In this document: positions 3,439 through 48,368 of the stretch, in pieces
How positions within the stretch are numbered: position 1 is the first letter of the stretch
How the letters are laid out: every line of letters starts with the position of its first letter
Assembly: GCA_035288465.1 (NCBI GenBank)
Contig: DATEAH010000006.1
Span: 27,770-91,769, forward strand
Length of the DNA stretch: 64,000 bases
Direction: 5' to 3'
Origin: Patescibacteria group bacterium
GTDB taxonomy: Bacteria; Patescibacteriota; UBA1384; DATEAH01
The notes under the pieces: generated by a model
Told to the model about the DNA's origin: nothing
What the model saw: the letters and a program-made list of their open reading frames with translations, nothing else
The model's database searches: none
Position numbers and translations under genes: made by a program

Positions 3439-3439
3439 T

Positions 3440-16180: not shown

Positions 16181-16265
16181 ACGGTTAACAATCAACAGTT
16201 AATAACTCTGTGGTCCGAAATAGAGATTGGGGATTATGCCCGCCAAGTCTTAGAACTCACCTTTT

Positions 16266-16387
16266 CAGTATTACCGCGCCCGCCATTACTACGCTCAGGC
16301 GTTGCGGGCGGGTTCATACACGGTTCGTGCTGCGAATATCAGCGGGTTGCACACCAATTATATTAATTTTCTGGAGTGCAGGAGGGG
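16266..16387 (+). promoter_or_regulatory. Conserved structured leader element, copy B, upstream of the TPR gene
   Basis: It shares the same conserved blocks as 3309..3438 at about 85-90% identity. Intervening variable segments could each form their own hairpins. It ends ggagtgcaggagggg. Confidence 0.5.
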
Positions 16388-19154: not shown

Positions 19155-19286
19155 CTTTTTAATTCAAGATTTATATTCTAATTTGACATTTTTAGTCAAT
19201 TTTATGGTATATTATAAATAGTAAAGAATCAAATTTGCTTAGCCTCGCGACGAGGATTATTTTGAGGTTATATATAAAATTCCAAA

Positions 19287-19673
19287 TTGCAACAACCGAT
19301 GACCAATCAAATTACAAATTCCAATCACCAAATAAAATTTGACTTAGAGGAACGTACCTCAAACTTCGGGAAAGAGATAATTAATTTTTCTAAGGGCATT
19401 AAAATAAATCCAATTAATAATCCAATAATTAACCAACTGGTAAGATCCGGAACAAGCGTTGGAGCAAATTATTGTGAAGCAAATGAATCAAATTCAAAAA
19501 GGGATTTTATCCATAAAATATCTATTGCCAAAAAGGAAGCTAAGGAAACCATGTATTGGCTTGGCCTGATAAGTAGTGCCGAACCAACCAAAGAAAATGA
19601 TGCAAAGCAGTTACGTAAGGAAGCTCACGAATTAGTCTTAATATTTTCATCAATAATTAAAAACAAGAAATAA
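19287..19673 (+). CDS. Four-helix-bundle protein (23S rRNA IVS protein / Avd-like family), paralog 1
   Basis: Motif QLVRSGTSVGANYCEANESNSKRDFIHKISIAKKEAKETMYWL matches the LxRSxxSIxANIxE...DF...E signature. It is paralogous to 25676..26050 and 28908..29273. Confidence 0.7.
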   Translation: MQQPMTNQITNSNHQIKFDLEERTSNFGKEIINFSKGIKINPINNPIINQLVRSGTSVGANYCEANESNSKRDFIHKISIAKKEAKETMYWLGLISSAEPTKENDAKQLRKEAHELVLIFSSIIKNKK

Positions 19674-19736
19674 ATTCGCACCTGAATATTGGACATTGAT
19701 TGGTGATTGAAATTTGATAATTGGAATTTATCCTAA

Positions 19737-20933
19737 TTGGGGGGGGCTTTGAAAAAATCAACGAAAATCATTTTAATCGCTTCTGGAACAGTAATATTAG
19801 TAAGCGTTATTTTGATTGTGATTTTTGCCTATATTTCAAAGGCTAGCCCAAACACACCAGAACCAGGACAGCCGAATTTAAAACTACCACCAAAACCTAC
19901 AAATGTTAAAGCCGAGCTGGTTAATGTCCCGGGTAAGGGAAAAGCCATTTATATAACATGGGAAGCGCCTGAAACATACAATATTACTATTACAACATCT
20001 ACACCGACTCTTCCTTCTCGCCCTGGCGAAGGCACCACGCCTCAACAAACCCCAAAAACATATGATTATCATTTTGAAGTTACCATAAACAAAACTTCGC
20101 TTTTTAATGGAAAACCTCAAATTGTAGATGGAATTGTGCCCAGGGACCAAGAAGGTGCTTTTAAAATTGGGAAAAATCGATTTAGATATCAACATTTTAT
20201 TACTTACTCGGATCGAGAACAAAGTTATGGTGTTACAACTATTGCCTCCGGGCAAATCGCCGGATTATATGATAGACCAAATTCTATACCCGTTTATACA
20301 TCTTATAAACCCACCAACCAATCAGATGATGACCTTGCCCGCAATTTAGCCCAAAAATACAGCCAAGCCTGTTCGGATCTTAACGAATTATATAAACCAA
20401 GCAATCGTTCAAAATATTGGTATGATGTCAGCAAAGCCGAAGCCCGGATTCAAGCATTTATTGGAGGCAGTGGTACTGCAATTACCCCATCTGAATTAAC
20501 CGAAGATGGCATTAAATTATATTATCAATTGCAAAATGAGGTTGCAGACGCGAATGCTAATTTAAACGAGCTAAGCGGACGAGGTTGGGATGATGCACAT
20601 TCATTTCCAAGTATCGCAATGTGCGGACCAAGACAGGTGAATATTACAACTTTTGGCAAGATGAAGGAAGAATTAGCAATTTTATCCAAGTCTGCACCTG
20701 GTGCGGGACCAAGTGCTGGAGTAGTTACGGGCGGCAGTGATTGCACACAAAGCAACTTATTAGAAAAAATTAGCTGCGATATTGTTACGGGAATTCTTAA
20801 TTTTTTAGCCCAATCCTTTGATTTTGCTTTAAATTTGGTCAAAGATTGGTCAGGTATTTCAGATTCTCCGGCAACAACCCCAACAACCTCGCCTATACCA
20901 ACTCCCTCCACAGCCCCATCTACTACTCCCTAA
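19737..20933 (+). CDS. Membrane-anchored secreted protein with Ser/Thr/Pro-rich C-terminus
   Basis: An N-terminal TM, a Pro-rich linker and an STP-rich tail (TTPTTSPIPTPSTAPSTTP). TTG start; an alternative TTG at 19749 would give MKKSTKIIL. Confidence 0.45.
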   Translation: MGGALKKSTKIILIASGTVILVSVILIVIFAYISKASPNTPEPGQPNLKLPPKPTNVKAELVNVPGKGKAIYITWEAPETYNITITTSTPTLPSRPGEGTTPQQTPKTYDYHFEVTINKTSLFNGKPQIVDGIVPRDQEGAFKIGKNRFRYQHFITYSDREQSYGVTTIASGQIAGLYDRPNSIPVYTSYKPTNQSDDDLARNLAQKYSQACSDLNELYKPSNRSKYWYDVSKAEARIQAFIGGSGTAITPSELTEDGIKLYYQLQNEVADANANLNELSGRGWDDAHSFPSIAMCGPRQVNITTFGKMKEELAILSKSAPGAGPSAGVVTGGSDCTQSNLLEKISCDIVTGILNFLAQSFDFALNLVKDWSGISDSPATTPTTSPIPTPSTAPSTTP

Positions 20934-20961
20934 ATTAATAATTTATTTAAATTAATATAAT

Positions 20962-23589
20962 ATGAATAAAACCAAAAAGATTTTTCTAATTTATTTAATT
21001 ATTTTTATGCTTTCTATTTTTATTTTACCGAAAGCAATCTTTGCACAAAGTTCAGCGGATAACCAGCAGAATGCCAACCAAACAAATACCACTAATTCTA
21101 CAAATTCCACCAATCCTCTCCCGGGTACGGTTGTCACTGGATCAAACGACCCAACAGCCGCCGAACATCGCAGCCTTTCGACACAATTAAGGAAAAATAA
21201 TTTTATTAAAGAAGCTTGGAAGTATGTTTTAGCCCTTTTAAATGCTGTCGTAGTTTTAGGTTTAATTTTTATCGCCTTGGCTAATATGTTGAGAATTAAT
21301 GTTGAAACATATGAAATCAGGCGAATGCTACCGGCAATTATTATCGGTGTAATTTTAGCGAACTTTAGCTATTTAATTTGCCGAGTAATGGTTGATTTTA
21401 CCCAGGTGTTAGCTGACTTTTTTATTAAAGGCGTTACCGGCCAAGATCTTTTGGTTGTTTTTGGTTTCGCGGATTTGGCGCCGGGTGATACTGCACCAAC
21501 TGTGGGGACAATGCTTAAAGTTTTAATGGCATTTAACATTGGCGGCGGGGTTATTACAGGTGTTGCGACTGGCGGTTTAGGCGGAGCACTTTTTATCATT
21601 GGTGGCGCTTTTTTAATTATTGGGGTACCATTTTTATTAATTTTGTTTATTGGTTTGTTGTTGGCAGTTCGAATTTATATGATTTGGGCATTAGTAATCT
21701 TGTCGCCAATCGCCTTTTTCGGCTTATTTTTTACGCCAATAACTAAATTCACTTGGCAAACCTGGTGGAGCATGTTTGTACGCTGGATCTTTTTTGCCCC
21801 GTTTTCTTTTGTTTTTATTAAATTAGCAACAATTGTGGCTAAATCCAGCTGGCCTGAGGGCTCTGGCCCAGGTTTTGCAAAATGGTTTTTTGGGGTAGTG
21901 CTTTTTGCTTTAGCAATTTATATTCCCTATATGCTCGGTGGGAAAATCGTTTCCGGCTGGACCGGTTTATGGAAAAGCGCCGCTAGATACGGCGCAATCG
22001 GGTTAGATAAAGGTAGAAAAGGGGTTGGGGCCTGGGTTACTGGCAGATATAAAGACGAAAATAGGTGGCAAAATAAATTTGGAAAGGCTTTAATGTTTAG
22101 CCCATCAGTTGTTTGGGCTGATAGAGTAAAACAGTCGCAAAAAGACGTTGAATTAGCAACGCGCACCGGTCCACTCAGATCCATCGGAGGAAAGAGATCT
22201 TTAACTGAAACAAGAATTGGGTTTGGAGAAGCAATGGCCGGCAAAGATCTTGCATTATCAGAAAGTATTTTTACTGCTGCACCAACGAGAAACCCAAATG
22301 TCAATAGGTCGGGAATTGATGAATACATCCAAAACAAAGCAGCTAACCCCAAATATCAACTTGCCGGCGACGATGCAATATTAATTGCTGGAGAATCATG
22401 GATAGGCGAAGCGAAAAGGCAAGCGCAACAAGGAGAAGCTAATGCTCAAACTTTAATGTGGCGCCATTTTAATAATGCTGGGGTTGATTTAAATAATCCC
22501 CTCACCAAACAACAGGAAAAAAACCAGTTCTTAAAAGAAGCCAAGGAATCCTATGACGCTGGCTATAAACGGACCCAATCGGTTGCGGGAACTGTTATTG
22601 GACAAGTTGAACCACCTCCGGGCGGTGGACCCATAGCTGGTGGTCCGGGTGGTCCCGAAGGTCCATCAACTCTACCAAATTTTAATAAGGAATTAGAAAT
22701 TTCCGAACCATTAAGGGTTCATCTTCAACCTGAGATAGAAAGCGGCAGATTAAAACTAAGTGATGTCAGAGCCGCTATTAGAGAACTGGAAAATCCATTG
22801 GCAGGAGACTCAAGCTTTGTAATGAATAGGGCTTTTAGTTTTGTCCAAAGATATACCCCGACCGAAAAAGTTGAAATCGGACACTTAAAAGGAAATCGAG
22901 AAGAATTGCTTAAACATTTACAAAATATGGAAAGTTTGGGAAGAGCGATTAAAGATAATCCTGGGGTAACCCCGGAAGTCATTAAACAAAAACATTTAAT
23001 AAACTTAACGCAAGACTGGGATGTTGGGCAAATTCATGATACAATTTCGGGTGCAACTCAAGGAAAAACCCCTGAAGGAATCCGGGCTGCTTTAAATGAA
23101 GATACATTAAAAGTACCGTTAAAACAGAAAGTTTTGACATATTTAACTACCTCGGGTGTAGGTGTCGAACAAGCCAAAAAACAACTTGATGCAACTTATG
23201 GTGATCTGGTTGATAATCTAAGCAAGTTACCTGCAGGAAGAACAACTCGTAGCGCAACCTCTGAAATATTATTAAGATATACAAAACCTACTCTAAAAGT
23301 TACTGAAACACCTGGTCCTGCTCCAATTCCCAATAAACCTGCTGCTCCCGCCTCTGCATCAACACAAGCTCCCGGCGCTCCCGGTGGCACTGCTCCTGCC
23401 ACGTCAGCAAAAACCAACCCTACCAATTCTGCGGCTCCTGAAGTTAGCGGCAAAACACCTTTCACCGATAAAGATATTGAGAATTTAACGAACCAGATTA
23501 ATGTTGAGCGTGCATCTGGTAATTTCGAAAAGTCTTATCAGCTAACAGAAACTAGAAATAAAATGATTGAAGAAAGAAAAATGAAATAA
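20962..23589 (+). CDS. Large polytopic membrane protein with Asn-rich signal region and a roughly 550 aa C-terminal domain; VirB6/ConG-like by architecture
   Basis: A signal peptide, at least 6 TM helices between aa 90-330, then a soluble domain ending in a Pro/Ala-rich tail. The call rests on topology and T4SS gene context only. Confidence 0.35.
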   Translation: MNKTKKIFLIYLIIFMLSIFILPKAIFAQSSADNQQNANQTNTTNSTNSTNPLPGTVVTGSNDPTAAEHRSLSTQLRKNNFIKEAWKYVLALLNAVVVLGLIFIALANMLRINVETYEIRRMLPAIIIGVILANFSYLICRVMVDFTQVLADFFIKGVTGQDLLVVFGFADLAPGDTAPTVGTMLKVLMAFNIGGGVITGVATGGLGGALFIIGGAFLIIGVPFLLILFIGLLLAVRIYMIWALVILSPIAFFGLFFTPITKFTWQTWWSMFVRWIFFAPFSFVFIKLATIVAKSSWPEGSGPGFAKWFFGVVLFALAIYIPYMLGGKIVSGWTGLWKSAARYGAIGLDKGRKGVGAWVTGRYKDENRWQNKFGKALMFSPSVVWADRVKQSQKDVELATRTGPLRSIGGKRSLTETRIGFGEAMAGKDLALSESIFTAAPTRNPNVNRSGIDEYIQNKAANPKYQLAGDDAILIAGESWIGEAKRQAQQGEANAQTLMWRHFNNAGVDLNNPLTKQQEKNQFLKEAKESYDAGYKRTQSVAGTVIGQVEPPPGGGPIAGGPGGPEGPSTLPNFNKELEISEPLRVHLQPEIESGRLKLSDVRAAIRELENPLAGDSSFVMNRAFSFVQRYTPTEKVEIGHLKGNREELLKHLQNMESLGRAIKDNPGVTPEVIKQKHLINLTQDWDVGQIHDTISGATQGKTPEGIRAALNEDTLKVPLKQKVLTYLTTSGVGVEQAKKQLDATYGDLVDNLSKLPAGRTTRSATSEILLRYTKPTLKVTETPGPAPIPNKPAAPASASTQAPGAPGGTAPATSAKTNPTNSAAPEVSGKTPFTDKDIENLTNQINVERASGNFEKSYQLTETRNKMIEERKMK

Positions 23590-23619
23590 AATAATACAAT
23601 AAAAAGAAAAGGAATAAAT

Positions 23620-24309
23620 ATGTTTAGATTATTTGGTGGTGGTCGCGGACCAGAGGGTATGCCAGACCATTCAACTGTCGGGCCAGAAGCTGAAAGATCC
23701 AATACGCCACCTCAACCTCCCCAAGATACTCCACAAACCCTAGACCCTTCTGAACCCTCAATAACAAATCAACCAGAAACAGGAGAAAATATTTTTATAG
23801 CTGTTCCCAAAGAATTAGCGCAAGAAGTTTTACCTACCATTCAATATATTTACAAAAATAATATAGATAAATTTATATTAAAAAGAAGCCACGATCCAAT
23901 CGCTACATTATTAAATCCGGAGCGAATTAAATCCGCAGGAGAAGAAAGACGGATCGACCAACTCGCTGAGGAAAAAATTACCAAAGGCGAAGCCGAAAAC
24001 CTCGATGAAGCAAGACAAAAATTACTTTATGAACATATTTATGCACCACCGATGGCTCAGCATCTTGATCAATTAAGACGAGGATTAGGCGCAGAAGAGA
24101 AAATAAATTTAACTTTTTTGACGGACAATTTACAAAGCCGGTTTGATCATGAAGATGGAGTAGCAAAGGGCGATCTAAAACACTGGAGTTACGAAAAACA
24201 CGGAGGAAAGGGTCCATCAAAAGAAACGGTCAAAAAATCCGAAAAAGAACGCGATAAAATGGATCGATTTTTAAAGGAATTGGCTAAGTTAATTCCGCCT
24301 AAATCATAA
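23620..24309 (+). CDS. Hypothetical protein
   Basis: A 229 aa ORF with a Pro-rich N-terminus and no recognisable motif. Confidence 0.4.
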   Translation: MFRLFGGGRGPEGMPDHSTVGPEAERSNTPPQPPQDTPQTLDPSEPSITNQPETGENIFIAVPKELAQEVLPTIQYIYKNNIDKFILKRSHDPIATLLNPERIKSAGEERRIDQLAEEKITKGEAENLDEARQKLLYEHIYAPPMAQHLDQLRRGLGAEEKINLTFLTDNLQSRFDHEDGVAKGDLKHWSYEKHGGKGPSKETVKKSEKERDKMDRFLKELAKLIPPKS

Positions 24310-24319
24310 GAGGAAGAAA

Positions 24320-25090
24320 ATGAATATATCGCCAGAAATGTCGCCAGAATTATTATCCCATGAAGGAAAACCAGTCTTTGCTGATTCACCAGAAACAGGT
24401 GATAATAGGTTAAAGATTGAATTCGCGGGGTTTGACCATGAAAAAGCCCCCATCAACGAATCGGAAATTAAAGATAAAGTTGCATGGCTAAAAGATGGCT
24501 TAGACAAAGAAGATCTCCAACCAGGATTGGTTGAGACTCTAATTAGCAAAATAGAATATAATCCTGTTCAAGTAGAAATTGATGAAAAATATGGTCTTGA
24601 GGGTAATGGGGCGCCTCATAAAGCTGCTGCATATTGTTATTTCATGGAAGGCAAAATTGTTTTTTATGACGCAGTTGCAAGTTGTAAAAGTTTTAATTAT
24701 ATTTTAGCCCACGAATTCGGTCATTTGGTTGCGACCCAAACCATGACCGAACCAGCCCGAGCCACATATTTAGCCAAGCGTGCCGATTTGTTGGCACAAG
24801 GAAAAATCCAAGACACGAGATATGTTGCCGGCATGAACGAAGATCTCAAGGATGGCGAAAGATTGGCTGAAGATTTCGCCTTATTAATGACTGATCAAAA
24901 AATGAATCGGGAATTAAGTCAGGCCCTAAAAGAAGCTATCAGGTCCAATTCGGCCGAACAAACTAAAATTAATTTACAAGCATCAATCGAGCGAGCCAAA
25001 AATATTCCTGACCAAGATAAACGTTTTGAAGATTCAAGTTTGATGGGAAGTTTAGAATATCCACGCAAGAAAAAACCCGGCGAAATATAA
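24320..25090 (+). CDS. Putative zinc metallopeptidase-like protein (HExxH)
   Basis: Contains ILAHEFGHLVATQ. No signal peptide is evident. Confidence 0.35.
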   Translation: MNISPEMSPELLSHEGKPVFADSPETGDNRLKIEFAGFDHEKAPINESEIKDKVAWLKDGLDKEDLQPGLVETLISKIEYNPVQVEIDEKYGLEGNGAPHKAAAYCYFMEGKIVFYDAVASCKSFNYILAHEFGHLVATQTMTEPARATYLAKRADLLAQGKIQDTRYVAGMNEDLKDGERLAEDFALLMTDQKMNRELSQALKEAIRSNSAEQTKINLQASIERAKNIPDQDKRFEDSSLMGSLEYPRKKKPGEI

Positions 25091-25179
25091 AAACAGGTTA
25101 TAGCTTTTAGGTTTCAGTTTCTAGAAAAAACCAAAAACCGACAACTATAAGCTAGCAAATAGAATCTAAAAAGGGAAAT

Positions 25180-25686
25180 ATGCAATTTGAGGTGCCGCAA
25201 AAAATTGATTTAGAAGACAAGGTAATCGGACCACTAACTTTAAAGCAGTTCTTTTATCTTTTGGCAGGTGGGATGCTTGATTATATTTGGTTTCGATTTT
25301 TCAGTTTTGCTATTTTCGTGATTTTGGCTTTGCCCACCACCGCCTTTTTTGTGGCCATGGCTTTGGCTCGAGTTCAAGATCAGCCTTTTCCAAAATTTTT
25401 AGGCAGTTTAGTTTTATATACCCTGCGACCAAAACAAAGAACCTGGGGTCGAGGCGCTCCCCTGCCAAAATTAATGGTGCGAACACCAAAATTAAAACAA
25501 GAGATCCAACCAGAAACTAAAAAAATGTCACCCGGGGAACTTGAAAAATTGGCGACAATCTTAGATACTAAAGGTTGGGACAAGGGTGAACCCGAGATGA
25601 AAGAAAGGGTAGTTTCACAGCCCGAAGCTCGTCCCAAACTTAATGTAGAGACGAATTCAAAATTAAAAAATCAAAATGCAAAATGA
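25180..25686 (+). CDS. Small two-TM membrane protein, possible VirB3/PrgI-like
   Basis: A 168 aa ORF with a hydrophobic hairpin (FFSFAIFVILALPTTAFFVAMALA) located just upstream of the VirB4 homolog. This is inference from context. Confidence 0.3.
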   Translation: MQFEVPQKIDLEDKVIGPLTLKQFFYLLAGGMLDYIWFRFFSFAIFVILALPTTAFFVAMALARVQDQPFPKFLGSLVLYTLRPKQRTWGRGAPLPKLMVRTPKLKQEIQPETKKMSPGELEKLATILDTKGWDKGEPEMKERVVSQPEARPKLNVETNSKLKNQNAK

Positions 25687-26050
25687 TAATGAAAATTTTA
25701 AAAATGAATTCAAAAAAAGACTATACTGTTTTGTCTTAAGGCTAATCAAATTTATAGAAAGTCTGTCAAAAAATGATATAGTTTGTAAAACTATTGGTAG
25801 CCAATTACTTAGAAGCGGAACAAGTATTTTAGCAAATTTTGTAGAGGCTAAATCCGCCAGCTCCAAAAGAGATTTTATTAATTTCTTTACGCATTCATTA
25901 AAATCCGCCAATGAATCAAAAATGTGGTTATGTTTATTAAAAGATACGGACAGAGGAAATAAAAACGAATTAAAATTTCTTCTTAAAGAATTAACTGAAA
26001 TATCAAAAGTAATCGCTTCGAGCATATTAACCCTTAAGGGTAAAAAATAA
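25676..26050 (+). CDS. Four-helix-bundle protein (Avd-like family), paralog 2
   Basis: Contains QLLRSGTSILANFVEAKSASSKRDFINFFTHSLKSANESKMWL. It overlaps the preceding gene by 11 nt. Confidence 0.7.
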   Translation: MQNDNENFKNEFKKRLYCFVLRLIKFIESLSKNDIVCKTIGSQLLRSGTSILANFVEAKSASSKRDFINFFTHSLKSANESKMWLCLLKDTDRGNKNELKFLLKELTEISKVIASSILTLKGKK

Positions 26051-26136
26051 TTTTGAATTTTAAACTGTCACTTTGATTTTTACATTTTGCAGTTTGAATT
26101 ATGGAAGTATAAACAACAATAACATAAAGAGGGGCA

Positions 26137-26916
26137 ATGACTAGTTCTAGTTCTGGATTTGGTTCAAATTCGAAGCAGGCGCAGAAGAAAAAAGAAACTA
26201 CCCAGGCTCATTTGCCGATCGCCGAGATTCGAAATGGCTGCGTGGTTTTAAAAGACGGCAGTTTGCGTTTGGTGCTTTTGGTTTCCACTATTAATTTTGA
26301 CCTGAAAAACGAGGACGAGCAAAACGCCCTGGTTTATGCATATCAGAATTTTTTGAATTCCCTGACTTTCCCAATCCAAATTGTGATGCAATCGCGACGA
26401 ATTGATTTGTCGGGCTATTTATCAGAGTTAAGCGCCAGATTGCCGCAAATCGAAAATCCCCTTTTACAGCTTCAGATTGAAGATTATTCAGCGTTTATTC
26501 AAAAATTAATTACTGTCGCCAATATTATGAATAAAAAGTTTTTTATCGTCATCCCTTTTTTCCCGCCAGCCCTGAAACAAACGGCTGGTTTTTGGGAAAA
26601 AGCTAAATCTGCGATCACGGCGCAAGAACCAGTCATTGACATGACTCATTTTGAAGAATACCGCAAAGAATTGATCCAGCGGGCACAAGCAGCCGCTTCC
26701 GGATTAGCGGCTTTAGGTTTGCGAGCAATTCAACTGACAACTCAAGAATTAATTGAATTATATTACCAAAGTTATAACCCAGAATTGGCGGTCCGTGAAA
26801 AATTAATCCCGATTGAGCAATTATCCGCGGCGGTCAGCCAAAGCCGAGACCAAACGCCACCAAGCTCACCACCAACCAACAATTACGGACAAGGTCCAGC
26901 CGCCAATAAGCAGTAA
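26137..26916 (+). CDS. VirB4/TrbE-like N-terminal domain protein (split VirB4, part 1)
   Basis: LPIAEIRNGCVVLKDGSLRLVLLVSTINFDLKNEDEQNALVYAYQNFLNSL resembles the VirB4 N-terminal region (…vLKDGS…e…g.~fe…). Confidence 0.45.
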   Translation: MTSSSSGFGSNSKQAQKKKETTQAHLPIAEIRNGCVVLKDGSLRLVLLVSTINFDLKNEDEQNALVYAYQNFLNSLTFPIQIVMQSRRIDLSGYLSELSARLPQIENPLLQLQIEDYSAFIQKLITVANIMNKKFFIVIPFFPPALKQTAGFWEKAKSAITAQEPVIDMTHFEEYRKELIQRAQAAASGLAALGLRAIQLTTQELIELYYQSYNPELAVREKLIPIEQLSAAVSQSRDQTPPSSPPTNNYGQGPAANKQ

Positions 26917-26974
26917 ACATCCGCCAGCTGGCGGAAACAGACAGCAATCATCAATTACCAATCAAATCTTAAGT

Positions 26975-27056
26975 ATCAAATTCTAAACCGTTTGGAATTT
27001 GAAAATTTAAATTTTAAAAATTGTTTAGAAATTAGGATTTAGAGATTAGAATTTAA
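26975..27056. repeat. MITE-like palindromic repeat copy R4, between the two VirB4 parts
   Basis: Contains ttgtttagaaattaggatttagagattagaattt. It is flanked by GC-rich palindromes ccgccagctggcgg (26922-26935) and aagcccccatgggctt (27058-27073). Confidence 0.55.
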
Positions 27057-27084
27057 CAAGCCCCCATGGGCTTGAAGGAGCTGA

Positions 27085-28860: not shown

Positions 28861-28907
28861 CGACTTCAAACTCTAAGCACGAAACTCTAATTACTAAACA
28901 AACTACA

Positions 28908-29273
28908 ATGACACAAATTTCAAATAACAAACAATACGATTTGGAAGATAGAACACTTAAGTTTGCCAAAACTATTATCCGGTTTATTAACAAATTACCC
29001 AAAACTATTTCTAATATTGAAATTGCCAGACAACTAATTAGATCTGCGGGTTCAATTGGTGCAAACTATATTGAAGCTAACGAGTCGTTAAGCAAAAAAG
29101 ATTTTATTATGAGAATAAAAATTTGTAAAAAAGAAGCGAAGGAAAGTCGTTATTGGCTCAATTTGATTGAAATAATTAAAAACCCCGAATTAGATGAAGA
29201 AAGATTAAACTATCTTCAAGAAACTACTGAATTGATGAAAATTTTTGGTTCAATATTAGAAAAAATAAAATAA
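28908..29273 (+). CDS. Four-helix-bundle protein (Avd-like family), paralog 3
   Basis: Contains QLIRSAGSIGANYIEANESLSKKDFIMRIKICKKEAKESRYWL. Confidence 0.7.
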   Translation: MTQISNNKQYDLEDRTLKFAKTIIRFINKLPKTISNIEIARQLIRSAGSIGANYIEANESLSKKDFIMRIKICKKEAKESRYWLNLIEIIKNPELDEERLNYLQETTELMKIFGSILEKIK

Positions 29274-29280
29274 TTTTTTG

Positions 29281-29345
29281 GGATTTTGGAAAATTAATAT
29301 TTATTATTTGTTTAGAATTTAGATATTATAATTTAGGATTTAACT
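29281..29345. repeat. MITE-like repeat copy R6
   Basis: atttgtttagaatttagatattataatttaggatttaac is similar to the right arm of the other copies. Confidence 0.45.
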
Positions 29346-29349
29346 TACA

Positions 29350-30543
29350 ATGGATTTATCTGAATTTAAAGAAAAACTTAACCATTGGTGGGCTTTCCCG
29401 TGTTGTGGTTGCGCATTAATTTTGGCATTAATTATAATTACCATCGCCGCTCTTGCTAGCACCTATACTAAATCACTTGGCGACCAAACCCCAGCTGGCG
29501 GCGGTGCTGGTGTTTGTAGTAACGTTCCTGCGCCATATGATAAAATTTTTGGTACCGCCGGAGACAAGTGGAAAGTTCAGCCAGGTTTTTTGGCAGCAAT
29601 TTTTGTTGCTGAACATGGACCAGTAATACGATATCGATCAGGATATAGTCCGGTTACTTCAAAAACTGCTGAATTTCCTGAAGCGGGTGGCGATCCCGAA
29701 GCAATAATAAAATGGGAAACATCCAGCGCTGGAGCCTTAGGTCCAATGCAATTTATGCCCGGAACATGGCCTGGTTATGCTCAAGATGCAAACGGAGATG
29801 GAAGCACCGATCCTCAAAATATTGTTGATGCCGCCTTTGCTTCTGCAAAATATTTAGCGATGGCCGGAGCTGGAGGAAATACTACCGACCTTGACAAGTT
29901 AAGAGATGCCGCCTCCCAATATAATAGCGGCCGACCATGGAGTCAGGGACAGAATATTAGAGAAACGAGCAGATATGTACCAAAAGTAATTAATAAGTTT
30001 CAACAATTCTATTGTGACGCAGGCGGCGCCGGTTATGCTGCAATAACAGGTAAAACATATTATCCTGTTAAGCCGCCGATTATTAGCTTTGGCAATAGCC
30101 GGCACCATTGCACACGAAATCGACCCTCTCCATGTAATCCTAATGGAACAGGACACAGTAAATTTCATAAAACTGGAGTTGCTATTGGGGATGCGGTTGA
30201 TTTAAAAAGTGGGGCTGGTAATCAAATTTATGCTATTTTTGACGGAGTGGCTGAAAAAAGATATACGAGGAGTGGTGGATTTAGTCACCTCAGGCTACAT
30301 TCTGCTTCAAATTCCGTAGTATTTGCAAATTATGCCCATATAAACGCAACCAAAACTGGAAGGGTTAATGCTGGAGACATAATTGGTTATTATGGAGTTG
30401 GGGCTGGACATCTCCATTTCGAATTGTGGCCGAATGAAGGCAAATCGATAGAAGGAGACCCCGCACGAGGAAGTGGCGCTGCTTATTGCAAATCAATTTG
30501 GGAAAATATGGCAAAATTCTTAGGATTAAGTCCATACCCATAA
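29350..30543 (+). CDS. Bifunctional cell-wall hydrolase: lytic transglycosylase (SLT-like) plus M23 peptidase (VirB1/CwlT-like)
   Basis: An N-terminal TM, then GALGPMQFMPGTWPGYAQDANGDGSTDPQNIVDAAFASAKYL (an SLT catalytic region), then a C-terminal HLHFELW M23 motif. Confidence 0.7.
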   Translation: MDLSEFKEKLNHWWAFPCCGCALILALIIITIAALASTYTKSLGDQTPAGGGAGVCSNVPAPYDKIFGTAGDKWKVQPGFLAAIFVAEHGPVIRYRSGYSPVTSKTAEFPEAGGDPEAIIKWETSSAGALGPMQFMPGTWPGYAQDANGDGSTDPQNIVDAAFASAKYLAMAGAGGNTTDLDKLRDAASQYNSGRPWSQGQNIRETSRYVPKVINKFQQFYCDAGGAGYAAITGKTYYPVKPPIISFGNSRHHCTRNRPSPCNPNGTGHSKFHKTGVAIGDAVDLKSGAGNQIYAIFDGVAEKRYTRSGGFSHLRLHSASNSVVFANYAHINATKTGRVNAGDIIGYYGVGAGHLHFELWPNEGKSIEGDPARGSGAAYCKSIWENMAKFLGLSPYP

Positions 30544-30553
30544 AGGAGGAAGG

Positions 30554-31639
30554 ATGAATAAAAAAACCATTATTTATATAACACTTGGCGGAATATTATT
30601 AGTTTTGATAATCTTGGCTATAATTTTTTCTAAAAATCAAGGCTATAATAATTTATTAAGCAAAAAAGCCACGACTAACATAAATAGTGAAAAAATTTTA
30701 AACAGAAAAATTTCTTATCCCTCCTTATTGAAAGAAAAAAATAATATATTATTTTTAGACATTGTTGAAGAAAAGTTAGGTGTGATTAATTTAGAAACCA
30801 AAGATTCTGAATTTATTTCACCTGATTTAAAATTGTTTGAATCATTATATGATATTATTTGGTCCCCCGAAGCCAAACAAGTATTTTTTAAGATAATTTA
30901 TAATGATAGTTTTAATAAGTGGGGTGGCTTCTTCTGGGAATCTAAAATTAAAGAAGGGGAAAATACAATCTGGCATTTTGATCTAAATGAAAACAAACCA
31001 AAAATACTTCAAAACAATATTGTAGATTTACTATGGTTGTCTGAATCTCAAATTATGTATATTTATCAAGAAAATAATAAAAGCAAATCCTTGTATAAGA
31101 GTAACCCCCAACTTACCAACCAACAAAAATTGTTCAATTTGCCTAACGAGGCCTTTGAATTGTTAAATTATAATCGACAGACTAATATTTTATACTACTC
31201 CAGATCTATACAATCCATAGGGGGAGGTTTTGACATCTATAAACTCAATCTAAATACAGGAAAAGAAGAAAAAATTCTAGGCGGAATTAGGCAAATATTT
31301 ATTTCGCCTGATCAAAGATTTATTGTTTATGGTAAATATGAAGAAGATGACCAAACTTATTTACTTAAAGTAGATGGAAATCAAATCAATAAAATGGATT
31401 TTATCCCCAATGAATGTATTTTTTACATTAAAGATAATAAGCCCCATGCTCTTCTGTCAGGACTCAAAAAAAATGATCCTTTATTGGGAATGATAGATTT
31501 AAATGAGGGGAAAATAATAAAATATATTTATTCAAATAAAGATATAAAATTTTACGAAAATCTAATACTATCCCGTGACGGCAAAGCTTTGTATTTCACA
31601 TCAGATGATTATTTATATAAAATGGAAATAGCAGAATAA
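30554..31639 (+). CDS. Membrane-anchored hypothetical protein (Asn/Lys-rich, beta-rich)
   Basis: An N-terminal TM (IIYITLGGILLVLIILAIIF). No motif was recognised. Confidence 0.4.
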   Translation: MNKKTIIYITLGGILLVLIILAIIFSKNQGYNNLLSKKATTNINSEKILNRKISYPSLLKEKNNILFLDIVEEKLGVINLETKDSEFISPDLKLFESLYDIIWSPEAKQVFFKIIYNDSFNKWGGFFWESKIKEGENTIWHFDLNENKPKILQNNIVDLLWLSESQIMYIYQENNKSKSLYKSNPQLTNQQKLFNLPNEAFELLNYNRQTNILYYSRSIQSIGGGFDIYKLNLNTGKEEKILGGIRQIFISPDQRFIVYGKYEEDDQTYLLKVDGNQINKMDFIPNECIFYIKDNKPHALLSGLKKNDPLLGMIDLNEGKIIKYIYSNKDIKFYENLILSRDGKALYFTSDDYLYKMEIAE

Positions 31640-31640
31640 A

Positions 31641-31772
31641 AAATTCTAAATCCTGAATCCGAGATCCTAAACAAATTCTAATTTTCCAAATTACAAATTT
31701 CAAACAAGTTTGAGATTTAAAACATTGGAATTTAAATATTGTTTAGAAATTAGTGCTTAGGATTTCGAATTT
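31641..31772. repeat. MITE-like palindromic repeat copy R7 (most complete)
   Basis: Left arm gagatcctaaacaaattctaattttcc and right arm attgtttagaaattagtgcttaggatttcgaattt. It is followed by a ccugcc-UUCG-gcggg tetraloop hairpin (31774-31788) just 5' of the AAGGAGGGG SD. Confidence 0.6.
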
Positions 31773-31803
31773 ATCCTGCCTTCGGCGGGACTAAGGAGGG
31801 GTT

Positions 31804-33759
31804 TTGGCAAACAGCGATAATGACGACAAAAAATCACAACTCTCAGCCAAAGAGCTCGAATTATATTTAAAAGAAAAACACGTTCAAACTCCTGCAGATG
31901 AGGAAACTAAACAAATAGAAGGAAAGGACGAAAAAGAAGGAGAAGAAACTGCGGGAGAAGACAAGCTCGAAGAACAAGGCATTAAAATCGAGTCTGTTTC
32001 TGGTGGACCAAAATTTAACCCGCCAGCCCTAAATAAACCAGTTCAACCTGGCACAGAATTAGGTCCCAAGCCAATTAATGTTAATGAGGATTTTAGGCCA
32101 AAATCACCAACCACGGCCCAACCGCAACCGACTCCTCCTGCTCCAGCAGTAACTGCCCCAACGCCAACGCCCACAACGCCAACTTCAACCACCACTACAC
32201 CGACCACAACACCAAGCCCTAAAGAACCGGTAATGCCAGCAGGTGCACCAGTAGTTGTTCCCGCACCTCAAAAACCTAGCACCCCAGAACCGGTTTCTAA
32301 CTCAAAATATTTAAATATTTCCACGCCTGAATCCAATAAAAAATCAGCTGAAACCAACAAACTTCCGTATACTACCCCCGAGCAAGATTCAAACATAGAT
32401 AAAGAAAAACCCTCGGCATTGGGAAAAGTTTTTAAAATATTTTTAATCATAATTCTTTTGGCAGGATTGGGTGGTGGTACTTGGTGGTATTTTTTGGCAC
32501 CAGGTTATTTGAATTTAACCGTGAATCCACCTGGCGCAACAATTCAGGTTGATAATAATAAAACCTCTGATACAAAAACCAAGCTCAAGCCTGGTTCTCA
32601 CACCCTAACGGTTCAAAAGCAAGGTTATGTTAATTATTCAAAACAAATTAACATTAAAAGGCTCCAAACCATCCAATTATCCGTAGAATTAATGAAAAAT
32701 CCTGCTCCGGCAAAAGTCTCCTCGACACAAATTAGTAATTTTTTTACCGATAAAGACGGCTTAGTGGTTTTAGGCAATAACGGCAAAACATTATACAAAA
32801 TAGAATCCGAAACTACCACGACTAATACTTCGAGCTCAAACAGCGATAGCTCCGAATTGACACAAAAGGCGATCAGTCCTGACAACCTGGGCGGAATCGA
32901 GGATATAATCTGGCACCCCAAAGAAAACCTGGCGATTATGAAAATTAAACAGAATAAGGCGGCCTTGGCAACAACGCTTTTTGCCAATAAAAGTGTGGCT
33001 AACGACCAAATTATGACTTATTTATTTGATTTTAAGCGTTATGATTTGGTTAATCAGGAAGTAACTTTTTGGGGAACCGATATTGGCGATATTGTCTGGT
33101 CACCCAGTGGGGAAAATATTTATTATTCATATGCACCAGCTTCTGGAGAAAAAACGCTGATCTCTGCCTCTAAAAACAATCAAAATTTAGAAAGATTGCT
33201 CAACTTCAAAGAAAGTAAAATTGAAAATCCAAATATTTCAATTTCTGCCGACGGTAAGTATTTATTAATCGTCTCGCATTCTTCGAATTATGATTCTAAT
33301 GAGGTGTATTTATTTGAAATTGTCACCAAGCAATTAACCAAATTAACCACCGGCGGGCATAAAATCAAGGCTAAATTTAGCCCAAATAGCCAGCAAATTT
33401 TATACACTTCTTACGGCGCCAACGACATTGAACCTACCGAATATTCGACCCTTGGAGTTGTTAATGTGACCACCAAAAAAACTAAAGCATTAAACGCACG
33501 TGCCACCACTGATCGAGCTGATTTTACCACAGATTCAAAATATATTTTGGCGGCGGTCTCGGTGGGAACTAATAAAAATGATGTCTTTGTTAAAATTGAT
33601 CCTGAAACTGTGGCTAAAACCGAGTTACCAATAGAAATGTCCTCAACACCACCAGACAACAGCAAACTAATTAAACCCGCTAAAGTGATTTTTATCGAAA
33701 ATAAGGCATATTATATTTATTTAGGGAATTTATATAGTCTTAATTTAGTAAATATATAG
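31804..33759 (+). CDS. Membrane protein with Pro/Thr-rich linker, PEGA domain and TolB-like beta-propeller repeats
   Basis: TTG start after SD. PEGA-like LNLTVNPPGATIQVDNNKTSDTKTKLKPGSHTLTVQKQGYVNYSKQINI. Repeated SPDG/SPSGENIYYS/SADGKYLLIV/FSPNSQQILYTS TolB/PD40-like blades. Confidence 0.5.
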   Translation: MANSDNDDKKSQLSAKELELYLKEKHVQTPADEETKQIEGKDEKEGEETAGEDKLEEQGIKIESVSGGPKFNPPALNKPVQPGTELGPKPINVNEDFRPKSPTTAQPQPTPPAPAVTAPTPTPTTPTSTTTTPTTTPSPKEPVMPAGAPVVVPAPQKPSTPEPVSNSKYLNISTPESNKKSAETNKLPYTTPEQDSNIDKEKPSALGKVFKIFLIIILLAGLGGGTWWYFLAPGYLNLTVNPPGATIQVDNNKTSDTKTKLKPGSHTLTVQKQGYVNYSKQINIKRLQTIQLSVELMKNPAPAKVSSTQISNFFTDKDGLVVLGNNGKTLYKIESETTTTNTSSSNSDSSELTQKAISPDNLGGIEDIIWHPKENLAIMKIKQNKAALATTLFANKSVANDQIMTYLFDFKRYDLVNQEVTFWGTDIGDIVWSPSGENIYYSYAPASGEKTLISASKNNQNLERLLNFKESKIENPNISISADGKYLLIVSHSSNYDSNEVYLFEIVTKQLTKLTTGGHKIKAKFSPNSQQILYTSYGANDIEPTEYSTLGVVNVTTKKTKALNARATTDRADFTTDSKYILAAVSVGTNKNDVFVKIDPETVAKTELPIEMSSTPPDNSKLIKPAKVIFIENKAYYIYLGNLYSLNLVNI

Positions 33760-33766
33760 GGGCAAA

Positions 33767-36466
33767 ATGGCAGATGATGACCAAAATTTATTATCGACGC
33801 CAGGAGCTGATGATTCAGAAGAACCGGCGGGAGGGGAAACAAATCAAGAACCAGAACCGCAAATAGATTCAAACCGAGGTCCAGACGTGCGGGATAGATT
33901 GCAACAATGGGGAAAAAATCGAAAAGAAAAACAAGCAGCTAAAAAAGCCGCCAAAACTGTAGCTAAAACCGGTGAAAAAGCGGTTGAGGGTGCAGCAAAA
34001 AAGGGCGCTGCGACCACAGCCAAGGCTGGCGCTCGTGCGGCGGCACAAGCTGTGGGCACGGCGGTTTTGGATGCTCTTGGCGTGGCCACTTCTGAGGCTT
34101 GGGTGCCAATTTTAATTGGGATAATAATTCTGGTGGTTGGTTTTATTGTTTTAATAATTTTAATCATCGTTATTTTTTGGCTTTTGCGGGGCGGGGCCGG
34201 CCAATCCGCATATATGAGTGCGGGCGATCCAATTAATGGCCCAAATGCGGCAGTTTATGCAGATATGAAAAATTTAATTGATAAAGGCAAAATTGTCGCG
34301 CCCTCAGAATCCCCGGAACCCGATAAGACCGAGGTTCCTTCAGAAAAAGAATTTTTATTAGGGAAAAAACATCCCACGGTTGGCCATGTTGATGTCAGGC
34401 TCTTAAAATCCCTGGTTTATTTGGGCGAAAAACACGAACGTATTTACGTTCGTAATGTTTTATATCCTTATGTTTATATGCCCGTCAATACCATTGAGAC
34501 CAAAAATACCAAAGACAACACCTTTGAAAAATCAATTTCTGCCCATAAAGAGGGTAAAGCCGCAGATATTAGCCAAATTGACAAGGGTTGTAAGAAAAAC
34601 TTAGAGGTCTCATGGCAAGATGATCCGGTCCAAACTGAAACCGAGGATCGCGGTATCCAACGCGACGAGGCAATCAATATTTTAGAAGAATCAATGGGCT
34701 TGGCCCAAAATAGCCTTGAGGGTAAAAACTTTGAAGAGATTTTACAGAACACTGGCCAGGCTGAATTAGAAAGATATTTCAAGCTTGAACCGGGCAGTTT
34801 AGACGGCAAGGATTTAAACGAGGTGATTAGTAACTGGGGACAAAGAGAATTTAATGAAAAGTTGAATTTGCCTTACGAAGTTAACGGTGTAAATTTTGAT
34901 CAATATGTCATTGATCTGGCGCAAACCAAAATTGAGGAGGTTTTCGGCTTACCCAATGAAAGCTTGCGCGGTCAAAATTTACAAGAAATTGCCATTAATC
35001 TGGGACAGACTAAAATTGAAAAAGAACTCGGCTTACCGGCCGGCACCCTTACCAATAAAGACAGCTTAAAATTTTATGCCCAAAATAAATGGGGCGACCA
35101 AGTTGATGAAAATCTGCTTAAAATCGCTGCGGATTTAGACCTTGCTCAATTGGGTTTATCCGAGAGAATTTTAATTGATTTATTCCATAAAGCCGAAGCT
35201 GGACAGGATCTTTCTTTTGAATTAAAAAATATTGGTGGTGCGGTTTTGGCAAATTCTCTTGATTTGCCACAAGGTACTAATATTTTTACAAATTATATGA
35301 TTGCACCGGATCCTGGTGGTTTCTCAATTGATTATCAGCAAACCATTGTCAATCAATTTTGGCAAAGTGTCACCGATGCCGAAATAGGATCTGGACTACC
35401 AGAAGGAAGCATTAAAAATTTCCTAAACGCAATGGCAAAAGGCGAAAATCCCCAAGATTATTTTAGAAATATCGGCAGCGATATTATTGATAATAATATT
35501 GGCTGGAAGGCTCGAACTGCCTATCAGCTGGCGACGGGCGCGATTGGGGTGGAACAAGCCCTGGCCAATACTGATTATTCAATTTCTGATCTGTCAGCCC
35601 GATGGAATGTCTCCGAACAATCGGTGAGAAATTTTTTATCAGGTAATATTAGCGCCGCGATTAAAGAAGAAGGCCAGCTCAGGCTTTCCTCGACCTTTAA
35701 TCTTCCCTATGATTTGGCGGGTGATTTAATTAATGGCAGAATAAATTATCAAACCGCCTTAAGTCTTGCCGGTATCAACTTAAATGATTTAGCCAAACAG
35801 TGGGATGTGCCAATTAATTCCTTAACAAGTTTTATGTCTGGGGATATAAAGGGTGCGGCAACTTCTTATGGAATTCAGATTATGAAGGAGAATTTTAAAA
35901 TGTCTGATGCGCAGATTAATGCCGCCCTTACCCTAATTCAAACCGGCGACATTAAGGGCGCTGCTGAACAATTTGCTAAAAACTATGCTCTAAACGCGAT
36001 TGGCGTTGCCTTCGGTTTGCCGCCTGGCACGATTCAGGCGGTGTTAATGGTGATTGAAAATCCAGAACTACTCTTAAATCCTTTAAAACAATTAGGCTCG
36101 ATGGCAAAAGAAGCGATTAGCGGCATTAGCAAAACCATCAAAAGTATTTTAAGTTTTGGCGGAATTTTCGGCCGAAAAAAATGCAGCACGCGCGACAAGG
36201 TGAGAGCAAAAATTCATCAAGTTACTAAAGAATTATTAGAAATGCCTGCGGCGAATATTCCAAAACTTGGTTTGCCTGACCGGTCCGAAATGAGGGTGAC
36301 GCAACTAATTGTCTGGAGCTATGAACGCGACGTGATGCCACTTGAAATTGGGACCGAGCAACCGACCTTAGATTATGTGTATGGCACCGGTCGGCAACCA
36401 AATTATGGACTTTTTGCGACAAAGGGTAATAATTATTTACTTGATCATATTCACGTTGGTTACTAA
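33767..36466 (+). CDS. Large membrane-anchored protein with LAS/M15-like peptidase motif and about eight internal ~35-aa GQ/GLP repeats
   Basis: An acidic then AKK-rich cytoplasmic N-terminus and one TM. HPTVGHVD...SISAHKEGKAADIS fits the M15 (VanY-like) H...SxHxxGxAxD pattern. Repeats such as NLQEIAINLGQTKIEKELGLPAGTLT recur. Confidence 0.4.
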   Translation: MADDDQNLLSTPGADDSEEPAGGETNQEPEPQIDSNRGPDVRDRLQQWGKNRKEKQAAKKAAKTVAKTGEKAVEGAAKKGAATTAKAGARAAAQAVGTAVLDALGVATSEAWVPILIGIIILVVGFIVLIILIIVIFWLLRGGAGQSAYMSAGDPINGPNAAVYADMKNLIDKGKIVAPSESPEPDKTEVPSEKEFLLGKKHPTVGHVDVRLLKSLVYLGEKHERIYVRNVLYPYVYMPVNTIETKNTKDNTFEKSISAHKEGKAADISQIDKGCKKNLEVSWQDDPVQTETEDRGIQRDEAINILEESMGLAQNSLEGKNFEEILQNTGQAELERYFKLEPGSLDGKDLNEVISNWGQREFNEKLNLPYEVNGVNFDQYVIDLAQTKIEEVFGLPNESLRGQNLQEIAINLGQTKIEKELGLPAGTLTNKDSLKFYAQNKWGDQVDENLLKIAADLDLAQLGLSERILIDLFHKAEAGQDLSFELKNIGGAVLANSLDLPQGTNIFTNYMIAPDPGGFSIDYQQTIVNQFWQSVTDAEIGSGLPEGSIKNFLNAMAKGENPQDYFRNIGSDIIDNNIGWKARTAYQLATGAIGVEQALANTDYSISDLSARWNVSEQSVRNFLSGNISAAIKEEGQLRLSSTFNLPYDLAGDLINGRINYQTALSLAGINLNDLAKQWDVPINSLTSFMSGDIKGAATSYGIQIMKENFKMSDAQINAALTLIQTGDIKGAAEQFAKNYALNAIGVAFGLPPGTIQAVLMVIENPELLLNPLKQLGSMAKEAISGISKTIKSILSFGGIFGRKKCSTRDKVRAKIHQVTKELLEMPAANIPKLGLPDRSEMRVTQLIVWSYERDVMPLEIGTEQPTLDYVYGTGRQPNYGLFATKGNNYLLDHIHVGY

Positions 36467-39055: not shown

Positions 39056-39357
39056 TTTTTTATTCTCCTTTTTAGGGTTGGTTCTAAATCTTATTTATCC
39101 ACAGGTTTATGTTTAATTTAAAAGTAATTAAATAAATTAGTAGTAATAATAAGGGTTAAAAAAACAGTGGATAACTAGGTTTTTAAATAAGAATTAAGGT
39201 GGATAATATGAGGACAATTTAAACCTAAATTATGGATAAGATGAGGATAATTTGTGGATAAGATTATCCATAATATTTTTTATTTTTTAGAGTTTGATAT
39301 TAATTTTTATTTAAGTGTTAAATCTTCCACAACTTATCCACAAGTTCTGTGGATAAG
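39056..39357. promoter_or_regulatory. DnaA-box cluster (oriC candidate) between dnaN and dnaA
   Basis: Perfect or near-perfect TTATCCACA/TGTGGATAA boxes at 39095-39103, 39166-39175, 39198-39206, 39231-39239, 39253-39261, 39265-39273, 39334-39342 and 39348-39356, in AT-rich DNA. Confidence 0.7.
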
Positions 39358-45563: not shown

Positions 45564-45649
45564 TTTCCTCTCCTTAATTTAAATAATCAGTTATTAATTA
45601 TATTGTAAGATGATTATTTTTTTTGTCAATTTTTAGTCTTAATTAAAAT

Positions 45650-46006: not shown

Positions 46007-46008
46007 AA

Positions 46009-46602: not shown

Positions 46603-46609
46603 ATTTTCC

Positions 46610-48346: not shown

Positions 48347-48368
48347 ATCCCCTCCTGCACTCCATAAT

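Follow-up and report, generated by a model that had tools for sequence, protein, structure and literature searches.

Analysis of a 64-kb stretch of Patescibacteria DNA (contig DATEAH010000006.1, positions 27,770 to 91,769; the whole stretch is hereafter called the window) revealed a plus-strand gene cluster at 19287-36466 that is very probably a chromosomal, origin-proximal type IV secretion system (T4SS) of the kind typical of Patescibacteria; a separate array of pilin genes lies on the minus strand at 45177-46915. An original prediction, made from the DNA letters alone, had described the cluster as a T4SS-derived surface or secretion apparatus rather than an ordinary conjugative element, and our data support this view, because the cluster occupies a housekeeping locus beside the replication origin (oriC), is accompanied by no relaxase, type IV coupling protein (T4CP) or integrase in the window or its immediate flanks, and has a gene order common to its relatives. 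That interpretation was right but is not new: it coincides with the published one, since Wang et al. (2023) and Quinonero-Coronel et al. (2025) describe the same system, of which this locus is a divergent new example.

Profile searches assigned PrgI/VirB3, VirB4, SLT_2 plus Peptidase_M23, PEGA plus PD40, and PF05635 genes within the cluster, and thus we regard it as real rather than as a chance pattern. All of its sizeable open reading frames (ORFs) are on the plus strand and separated by short gaps, and its base composition is unremarkable relative to the remainder of the window, which is AT-rich bacterial chromosome (GC about 0.33-0.41). The standard code (table 11) already yields long ORFs throughout the window, so an alternative genetic code was dropped.

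The motor of the system is encoded at 27085-28860 (+), where a 591-amino-acid (aa) protein represents the C-terminal motor part of a VirB4 ATPase (NCBIfam conju_CD1110, E = 2.9e-107, 359.8 bits against a curated cut-off of 325; Pfam P-loop_TraG, E = 3.8e-27). Its nucleotide-binding motifs are intact (i.e., Walker A GKSGGGKS at aa 253 and Walker B ILIVDE at aa 459), and the ORF begins five bases past its own AAGGAG ribosome-binding site. Upstream, at 26137-26916 (+), is the gene for a 259-aa TrsD-like protein (NCBIfam TrsD, 3.4e-8), which is homologous to the N-terminal domain of VirB4 but encoded on its own and also matches the N-terminal region of VirB4_plasma (model positions 95-233, 9.4e-10). 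A 168-nucleotide (nt) intergenic spacer (26917-27084, +), delimited by in-frame stops and by its sequence, separates the two; it contains no ORF and consists of an AT-rich hairpin repeat of family D1/D8 (fold, -45.3 kcal/mol), followed by a small GC hairpin and the AAGGAG. The original prediction had placed a single VirB4-family gene at 26137-28860. Its VirB4 ATPase stands, whereas the single gene does not, as translation of that span meets four in-frame stops and the span comprises the TrsD-like ORF, the spacer and VirB4. Related loci were fetched with the VirB4 protein, and among the best 80 of 570 confirmed loci a separate TrsD-like ORF precedes VirB4 in 77; two ORFs are thus what this clade usually has, and the split is no sign of disruption. 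The possibility of one VirB4 gene broken by the repeat was ruled out by these separate ORFs together with VirB4's own ribosome-binding site.

The small membrane protein at 25180-25686 (+), predicted to be VirB3-like, was confirmed as such by its match to Pfam PrgI (E = 3.3e-9; 37.6 bits against a cut-off of 27). It carries a transmembrane (TM) hairpin at aa 33-62, and PrgI is found immediately upstream of TrsD in 73 of the 80 related loci. Further upstream, the 875-aa polytopic protein at 20962-23589 (+) had been called VirB6-like, and we accept this on the basis of its hydrophobic segments (seven within aa 1-330, followed by a long hydrophilic tail that makes up the large C-terminal half), its position and its fold, albeit with less certainty than originally claimed: Pfam gave no match, TrbL included, and when a profile built from 16 homologues was compared with the PDB, R388 TrwI/VirB6 ranked second at E = 0.18. 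An AlphaFold model of residues 1-400 (mean predicted local distance difference test score [pLDDT], 69) retrieved R388 TrwI/VirB6 as each of its top seven Foldseek matches in the PDB (E = 7e-3 to 0.25; probability, 0.95-1.0), and a VirB6-like homologue lies upstream of PrgI in 53 of the 80 loci. Another family, PF19590, precomputed for several of the VirB6 homologues, could not be recovered when those proteins were run through hmmscan with the current Pfam copy, and was not used. Sequence and model thus give moderate support to the assignment of this protein as an extended VirB6. The VirB6-like channel, PrgI/VirB3, and the VirB4 motor with its TrsD-like polypeptide point to a predicted inner-membrane translocon of monoderm (MPF-FATA-like) type.

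The setting of the cluster is that of a chromosomal housekeeping region, as it lies between spoIID and dciA-recF-dnaN-dnaA. DnaA-box clusters comprising eight exact TTATCCACA sites flank dnaA (oriC, 39095-40831), and sites with at most one mismatch number 34 in the window versus 17.2 ± 4.1 in shuffles. As the boxes are dense at 39095-39356 and 40782-40831, oriC is placed ~2.6 kb from the cluster end. Other genes in the window are likewise of housekeeping type (polA, holA, Mur ligase, femAB, tsaD, class I tRNA synthetase, yidC, pilB and comFC), and a glycosyltransferase/radical-SAM block is also present. Profile searches detected no relaxase, VirD4/TcpA-type coupling protein or integrase among any of the ORFs in the 64-kb window, in agreement with what had been predicted for relaxase and VirD4. 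A relaxase or VirD4 just outside the window had been named beforehand as the observation that would overturn this picture; neither was encoded, nor was an integrase, in flanks of ~10 kb on the left and 6.7 kb on the right, read on contigs sharing the end genes of the window, and that test was thus negative. More specifically, the left flank encodes a DHH-family protein, S15, PNPase, RNase J, a bona fide FtsK and RodZ, whereas the right flank encodes an HTH protein, a GIY-YIG protein, an HD protein and sugar-nucleotide enzymes. The sole member of the FtsK family nearby carries 4TM, alpha and gamma domains, as chromosomal FtsK does. The predicted lack of a coupling protein therefore holds for the window and its flanks but not as a genome-wide claim, because VirD4-like genes often lie far from virB4 (PMC12102498). 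No oriT, element boundary or tRNA-flanked boundary was found in the window or flanks. An Rfam scan of the window returned two tRNA-Ser genes only, with no family for the repeats described below, and a promoter/terminator scan across the cluster was uninformative.

Across oriC from the cluster, four tandem VirB2-like T4SS pilin genes occupy 45177-46915 (-), an array that lay outside the coordinates of the original prediction and had been missed there. All four match Pfam T4SS_pilin (PF18895), with the individual genes at 45177-45563 (E = 3.7e-10), 45650-46006 (2.4e-13), 46009-46602 (1.3e-10) and 46610-46915 (5.7e-8). Of the 80 related loci, 37 have comparable arrays no more than 10 kb from VirB4, and from the protein family and the literature we infer that the array belongs to the T4SS and functions with it. 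The array adjoins, convergently, a gene for a PilB-type (T2SSE) type IV pilus ATPase (43451-45172, +), and comFC is located at 50036-50725; by position, therefore, genes of three envelope machines cluster around oriC.

To place the locus among its relatives, we compared VirB4 with 185,579 GTDB species genomes. The top match is 64% identical, and matches come from metagenome-assembled genomes (MAGs) labelled Berkelbacteria, Saccharibacteria or Patescibacteria; the next (50-60% identity) come from Kazan, Moranbacteria, Falkowbacteria and Saccharimonadia. Nearly all of the best 80 relatives (50-64% identity) are in MAGs labelled Patescibacteria or candidate phyla radiation (CPR), with a few labelled Bdellovibrionales. 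In the closest loci (L001-L010), VirB6 is followed by one or two unknown genes and then by PrgI, TrsD, VirB4, hydrolase(s), the PEGA/propeller protein and the giant repeat protein, as here, and the core order VirB6, PrgI, TrsD, VirB4 holds in the 25 of the 80 loci that were mapped, in MAGs of several candidate-phylum labels. The comparison of synteny with related CPR genomes, which the original prediction had proposed as a check, thus yielded a gene order common to Patescibacteria MAGs of several candidate phyla. Proteins identical to those of the window also turned up on contigs of numerous public assemblies (for the methylase described below, in 33 index blocks; loci L081-L086). As identical proteins recur, yet the top VirB4 in a species genome is only 64% identical, the lineage is widespread but unrepresented.

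The published system with which the locus agrees was described in Southlakia epibionticum, in which transposon sequencing (Tn-seq) identified a relaxase-less T4SS as essential for epibiotic growth (Wang et al. 2023, PMC10633639); there, too, coupling protein and relaxase are unrecognizable (PMC10633639; PMC12857230). A survey across the phylum described a distinct VirB4 clade related to MPF-FATA, with TrsD as the most frequent partner, together with PrgI, VirB6, VirB1 homologues with M23 or LysM domains and VirB2 arrays, often near dnaA/dnaN (Quinonero-Coronel et al. 2025, PMC12102498), and a 2025 review lists the Patescibacteria T4SS as a new branch of the superfamily (PMC12857230). Both effector export and uptake of host material have been proposed for its substrate, the latter in PMC11665869. 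The cluster shares with the Patescibacteria-clade system (S. epibionticum ML1 SEML1_0006-0019) a VirB4 with a separate TrsD-like partner, PrgI/VirB3, VirB6, a VirB1-type hydrolase with M23, a divergent VirB2-like pilin array, a dnaA/dnaN neighborhood, and no nearby relaxase or T4CP. By its VirB4, PrgI, TrsD, VirB6, pilins and relaxase-free position beside dnaA, the locus appears to be a member of that clade. It differs in that the pilin array lies across oriC, ~16 kb from virB4, instead of inside the cluster; in the distance of its VirB4 from any species genome; in the PF05635 genes and hairpin repeats that punctuate the operon; and in an accessory set (two TolB-like propellers, a helical-repeat protein with a LAS-like motif, and three orphans) that is absent from the main-text discussion in PMC12102498.

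With MPF-FATA systems (CTn2 CD1110-type, pCF10 Prg/Pcf and pGO1 Trs), the locus shares the minimal translocon of TrsD, PrgI/VirB3 and VirB6-like protein as well as a multidomain wall hydrolase, and its VirB4 exceeds the CD1110 cut-off. Unlike these systems, it has no recognizable VirB8-like (PrgL) protein and, within the window and flanks, no relaxase, T4CP or oriT, and it is not on a mobile element; moreover, Gram-positive MPF-FATA systems lack VirB2-like pilins, which are present here. The ComB system of H. pylori and the archaeal Ced system likewise have a VirB4-centered machine without a relaxase and offer a plausible functional analogy for a nucleotide-auxotrophic epibiont. ComB differs in its diderm VirB2-4, 6-10 set, whereas Ced uses CedA/CedB, and the CedB match here is just 4.6e-12 over part of the protein.

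Downstream of VirB4, the protein encoded at 29350-30543 (+) is a VirB1-like cell wall enzyme with an N-terminal TM segment, an MltB-type lytic transglycosylase domain (SLT_2, 1.3e-10) and an M23/LytM domain (Peptidase_M23, 4e-8). Both domains of the predicted SLT+M23 hydrolase were thus recovered, but the canonical HxxxD histidine is missing: aligned to the M23 peptidase chain 9gy1_A, the protein has Gly280 (GDAVD) where that histidine is expected, and the HLH motif is kept. As Gly280 replaces the first zinc-binding histidine, M23 peptidase activity is uncertain. In relatives, the hydrolase slots after VirB4 differ (L001, L003, L004, L006 and L008), holding SLT+Amidase_3, CHAP, M23, or M15_4+3D, with a genuine Peptidase_M15_4 protein downstream of VirB4 in L004. 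An abundant and changeable set of hydrolases thus characterizes the clade, and comparison of these sequences indicates that the part of the locus after VirB4 probably undergoes rapid domain turnover. Monoderm T4SSs as a rule have SLT, M23, CHAP or amidase enzymes beside VirB4, and these open the wall of the donor itself, as established for PrgK, CwlT and TraG (PMC12102498).

The last protein of the cluster (899 aa; 33767-36466, +) had been proposed as a second hydrolase of M15/LAS type. It has an N-terminal TM segment by which it is membrane-anchored, an alpha-helical repeat core according to an AlphaFold model, and a candidate split LAS/M15 motif; just six homologues were found among 5.8e9 sequences, and relatives carry versions of 1,070-2,060 aa at the same position, several of them cut by the locus end. 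The proposed SxHxxGxAxD motif is present (SAHKEGKAAD, aa 258; 34538-34567) and invariant in 6/6 homologues, with 2e-4 occurrences expected from composition. At the C terminus (DHIHVGY), DHIH (36443-36454) resembles the DxxH of VanY-type enzymes and is found in four of the six homologues, of which the last histidine alone is invariant; the two motif halves lie ~620 residues apart. Neither profiles nor AlphaFold confirmed the assignment. No M15 match was obtained for the whole protein in Pfam, NCBIfam or the PDB, or for a spliced N- plus C-terminal profile in the PDB and Pfam, and hhalign against the genuine M15_4 domains of related loci aligned 26 columns around the motif only (probability, 5%). 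The AlphaFold model (6 sequences) reached a pLDDT of 59 overall, 70-88 over residues 300-740, and <50 in the motif segments, and Foldseek returned no match for it. Given these profile, hhalign and pLDDT results, an M15/LAS hydrolase is at present a lead rather than a result. Instead of the approximately eight repeats of ~35 aa that had been predicted, the protein contains four clear copies of ~30 aa (aa 304-432) and about three degenerate traces.

Between the two candidate hydrolases lie two TolB-like proteins. The PEGA/TolB-like propeller predicted at 31804-33759 (+) was upheld by matches to PEGA (8.5e-12), PD40 (4.8e-5) and Peptidase_S9_N (3.1e-4); the protein comprises a low-complexity N-terminal region, a TM segment (aa 205-223), the PEGA domain and the beta-propeller, and is kept downstream of VirB4 in relatives. 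Its neighbor at 30554-31639 (+), a TM-anchored TolB-like beta-propeller protein by weak TolB (0.0018) and PD40 matches, is a distant paralogue (24% identity to the propeller part over 189 aa); the two families fuse on iteration of the hidden Markov models and were found in 36-40 of the 80 related loci. Three further proteins are orphans, none of which has a homologue in the 80 related loci. The protein at 19737-20933 (+), in the slot upstream of VirB6, is membrane-anchored by one TM segment (aa 11-29) and has a Pro/Thr-rich tail; it has no Pfam or NCBIfam match and only partial matches among 5.8e9 sequences, and relatives have an unrelated ORF of ~350-650 aa in this slot. The other two are soluble proteins with no family match: one at 23620-24309 (+), with no TM segment, and one at 24320-25090 (+), which carries HEFGH (HExxH) at aa 131 and found only itself among 1.84e9 representative proteins. 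The propellers, the large helical-repeat protein and the three orphans would represent lineage-specific envelope proteins.

Interleaved with these genes are three four-helix-bundle genes, which match PF05635 (23S_rRNA_IVP) at 19287-19673 (copy 1; E = 1.6e-17), 25676-26050 (copy 2; 6.8e-18) and 28908-29273 (copy 3; 1.9e-15), all on the plus strand. Copy 1 has complementary flanking arms with a flank duplex of -46.6 kcal/mol, compared with -25.6 ± 4.4 in shuffles; for copy 2, the corresponding values are -34.9 versus -21.1 ± 4.0, and the duplex of copy 3 was not significant against shuffles. The arms belong to an AT-rich palindromic repeat family with the core ...AAATCCTAAAC / GTTTAGAAATT..., which occurs either as arms around PF05635 genes or as empty hairpins, the latter, without an ORF, at 9534-9640, 15240-15324, 26960-27065, 31645-31790 and 49822-49940. 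The MITE-like repeats of the original prediction were thus confirmed as a hairpin repeat family between genes. Its three Avd-like genes are indeed four-helix genes (PF05635; E = 1e-15 to 1e-18) but not Avd, because none of the window ORFs contains a reverse transcriptase domain; the Avd of a diversity-generating retroelement was accordingly rejected for these genes, which match PF05635 in hairpin-flanked units. PF05635 is a protein family encoded in rRNA intervening sequences of CPR bacteria. In relatives, PF05635-type genes occupy varying sites of the T4SS locus: L004 has five; L008 has one at the very TrsD-VirB4 junction that is occupied in the window by an empty hairpin; and in L002 and L004, one directly follows VirB4, as copy 3 does here. 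Most likely, the PF05635 genes and hairpins are intervening-sequence-like insertions into intergenic gaps and not machine parts. In its behavior, the repeat family resembles a mobile element of the intervening-sequence type, inserting between genes at junctions of the operon that differ in related genomes. One hairpin (15240-15324) lies in frame within a class I tRNA synthetase gene (13979-16180), and its product, EEIRNPKSEILNKSQFQNSKSLEIRNSDLD, falls in a loop that homologues lack or have in a shorter form; this palindromic insertion is apparently tolerated as an extra peptide. After the repeats at 27055-27084 (VirB4) and 31775-31803 (PEGA protein), and also at 19243-19255, we observed a short GC-rich hairpin, a strong AAGGAG(G) and a start codon, an arrangement that might stabilize processed mRNA pieces or allow re-initiation on them.

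The alternatives to a Patescibacteria T4SS differ in how much of this evidence they can accommodate. An ordinary conjugative element, derived from an integrative and conjugative element (ICE) or plasmid and having its relaxase, coupling protein and oriT outside the examined stretch, would agree with a VirB4 that exceeds the curated cut-off of a conjugative-transposon model (conju_CD1110) and with the observation that T4CP genes are often away from virB4 (PMC12102498). We nevertheless hold it to be highly improbable: neither the 64 kb nor ~17 kb of flanks contain a relaxase, T4CP, integrase or tRNA-flanked boundary, the locus between spoIID and dciA-recF-dnaN-dnaA has a composition like the rest of the window, its gene order is kept in divergent Patescibacteria, and relaxases are known from only 103 Patescibacteria genomes, in 15 of which they are near virB4 (PMC12102498). 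Conjugation of the cell's own DNA by this T4SS is likewise unlikely. A machine for uptake resembling H. pylori ComB or archaeal Ced, through which a cell unable to make nucleotides would take in host nucleic acids or other building blocks, overlaps with the T4SS interpretation and differs from it only in direction and substrate. The architecture without relaxase and T4CP, the nearby competence gene comFC and pilus ATPase gene pilB, the speculation in PMC11665869, and a 2026 preprint on a parasite that feeds on host RNA and bears tubular structures that may be T4SS pili are all consistent with uptake. However, sequence sets no direction of transport, and the literature on the only genetically tested relative does not distinguish protein export from uptake, as a model figure shows delivery (PMC10633639) and a later review proposes uptake (PMC11665869); we consider import to be possible, though rather unlikely.

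The original prediction had further suggested that the hydrolase load would fit attack on the wall of a partner cell, such that the hydrolase-rich half (29350-36466) would be a weapon with the 899-aa protein as its second, M15/LAS-type peptidase. This idea draws on the invariance of SxHxxGxAxD in the six homologues and the VanY-like C-terminal DHIH, on the M15_4, CHAP, Amidase_3 and M23 proteins of relatives, and on the membrane anchors and large external parts of the proteins. Set against it are the lack of any M15 profile match even with spliced segments and the low hhalign probability, motif halves that lie far apart in segments that AlphaFold modelled without confidence, and an M23 domain that lacks the canonical histidine; furthermore, monoderm T4SSs normally have hydrolases beside VirB4, and the wall on which these act is that of the donor (PMC12102498). 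As such enzymes are standard and the second hydrolase is unverified, attack on a partner wall is unsupported, and we judge a weapon to be improbable.

The interpretation of the locus as a Patescibacteria T4SS, in favor of which the strong ribosome-binding sites after hairpin spacers were also counted, has to accommodate several observations that weigh against it. The VirB6 assignment is statistically weak (E = 7e-3 by fold and 0.18 by profile), and no VirB8-like (PrgL/TraM) bitopic protein was detected in the window by Pfam or NCBIfam profiles. As the pilin array lies ~16 kb from VirB4 and on the opposite strand, its co-function comes from family and literature only. In addition, the M23 domain of the VirB1-like protein may be enzymatically inactive, and a T4CP or relaxase may be encoded elsewhere in the genome; VirD4-like genes occur in many Patescibacteria, mostly far from virB4 (PMC12102498). 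By analogy with the protein families, VirB4/TrsD would dock on PrgI and VirB6 in the cytoplasmic membrane and energize the VirB3/VirB6 channel; the SLT/M23-type hydrolase would locally open the cell's own peptidoglycan; and the pilins would form a tube reaching the host cell of the epibiont. Such a machine would move macromolecules between cells, most likely proteins out or host material in. A more elaborate scenario is that the T4SS operon recruited a private outer module that breaches the host envelope (two TolB-like propellers, the helical-repeat protein, and orphans including the HExxH protein), with the pilus-bearing T4SS as a feeding conduit, a LAS-type peptidase domain in the helical-repeat protein split by an insertion of ~600 residues, and an operon mRNA cut at the intervening-sequence-like hairpins into pieces that each carry a GC hairpin and a strong ribosome-binding site; taken jointly, these propositions are a long shot.

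Further features of the window were observed outside the T4SS genes. A GC-rich repeated leader of up to ~170 nt occurs at 3275-3440, 16232-16390, 43374-43452 and 48338-48392 (minus strand) and terminates with an invariant GGAGTGCAGGAGGGG that immediately precedes the start codon in each of four unrelated genes (i.e., 3422, the tetratricopeptide repeat [TPR] gene 16376, pilB at 43451, and a solute-binding gene ending at 48346). The leader has no Rfam match and could be a shared regulatory RNA or promoter cassette. A restriction-modification pair lies at 101-1596 (-), with an N4/N6 DNA methylase at 101-931 and a BsaWI-like endonuclease at 928-1596. Two paralogous B12-binding radical-SAM genes (51196-52644 and 54598-56037, -) share a 161-nt stretch at 74% identity, and their block also contains glycosyltransferases, a CDP-alcohol phosphatidyltransferase, GtrA and an exosortase-like protein.

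Few machines are known to be essential for the epibiotic lifestyle, and the T4SS of Patescibacteria is among them; the present locus contributes an example that is divergent yet complete and comes from a lineage without a close reference genome. While the current picture of the system is unchanged, the locus sets constant parts (VirB6, PrgI, TrsD, VirB4 and pilins) apart from parts subject to turnover (the hydrolase domains, the giant surface proteins and the orphans), a contrast that helps to pick candidates for host-contact or substrate proteins.

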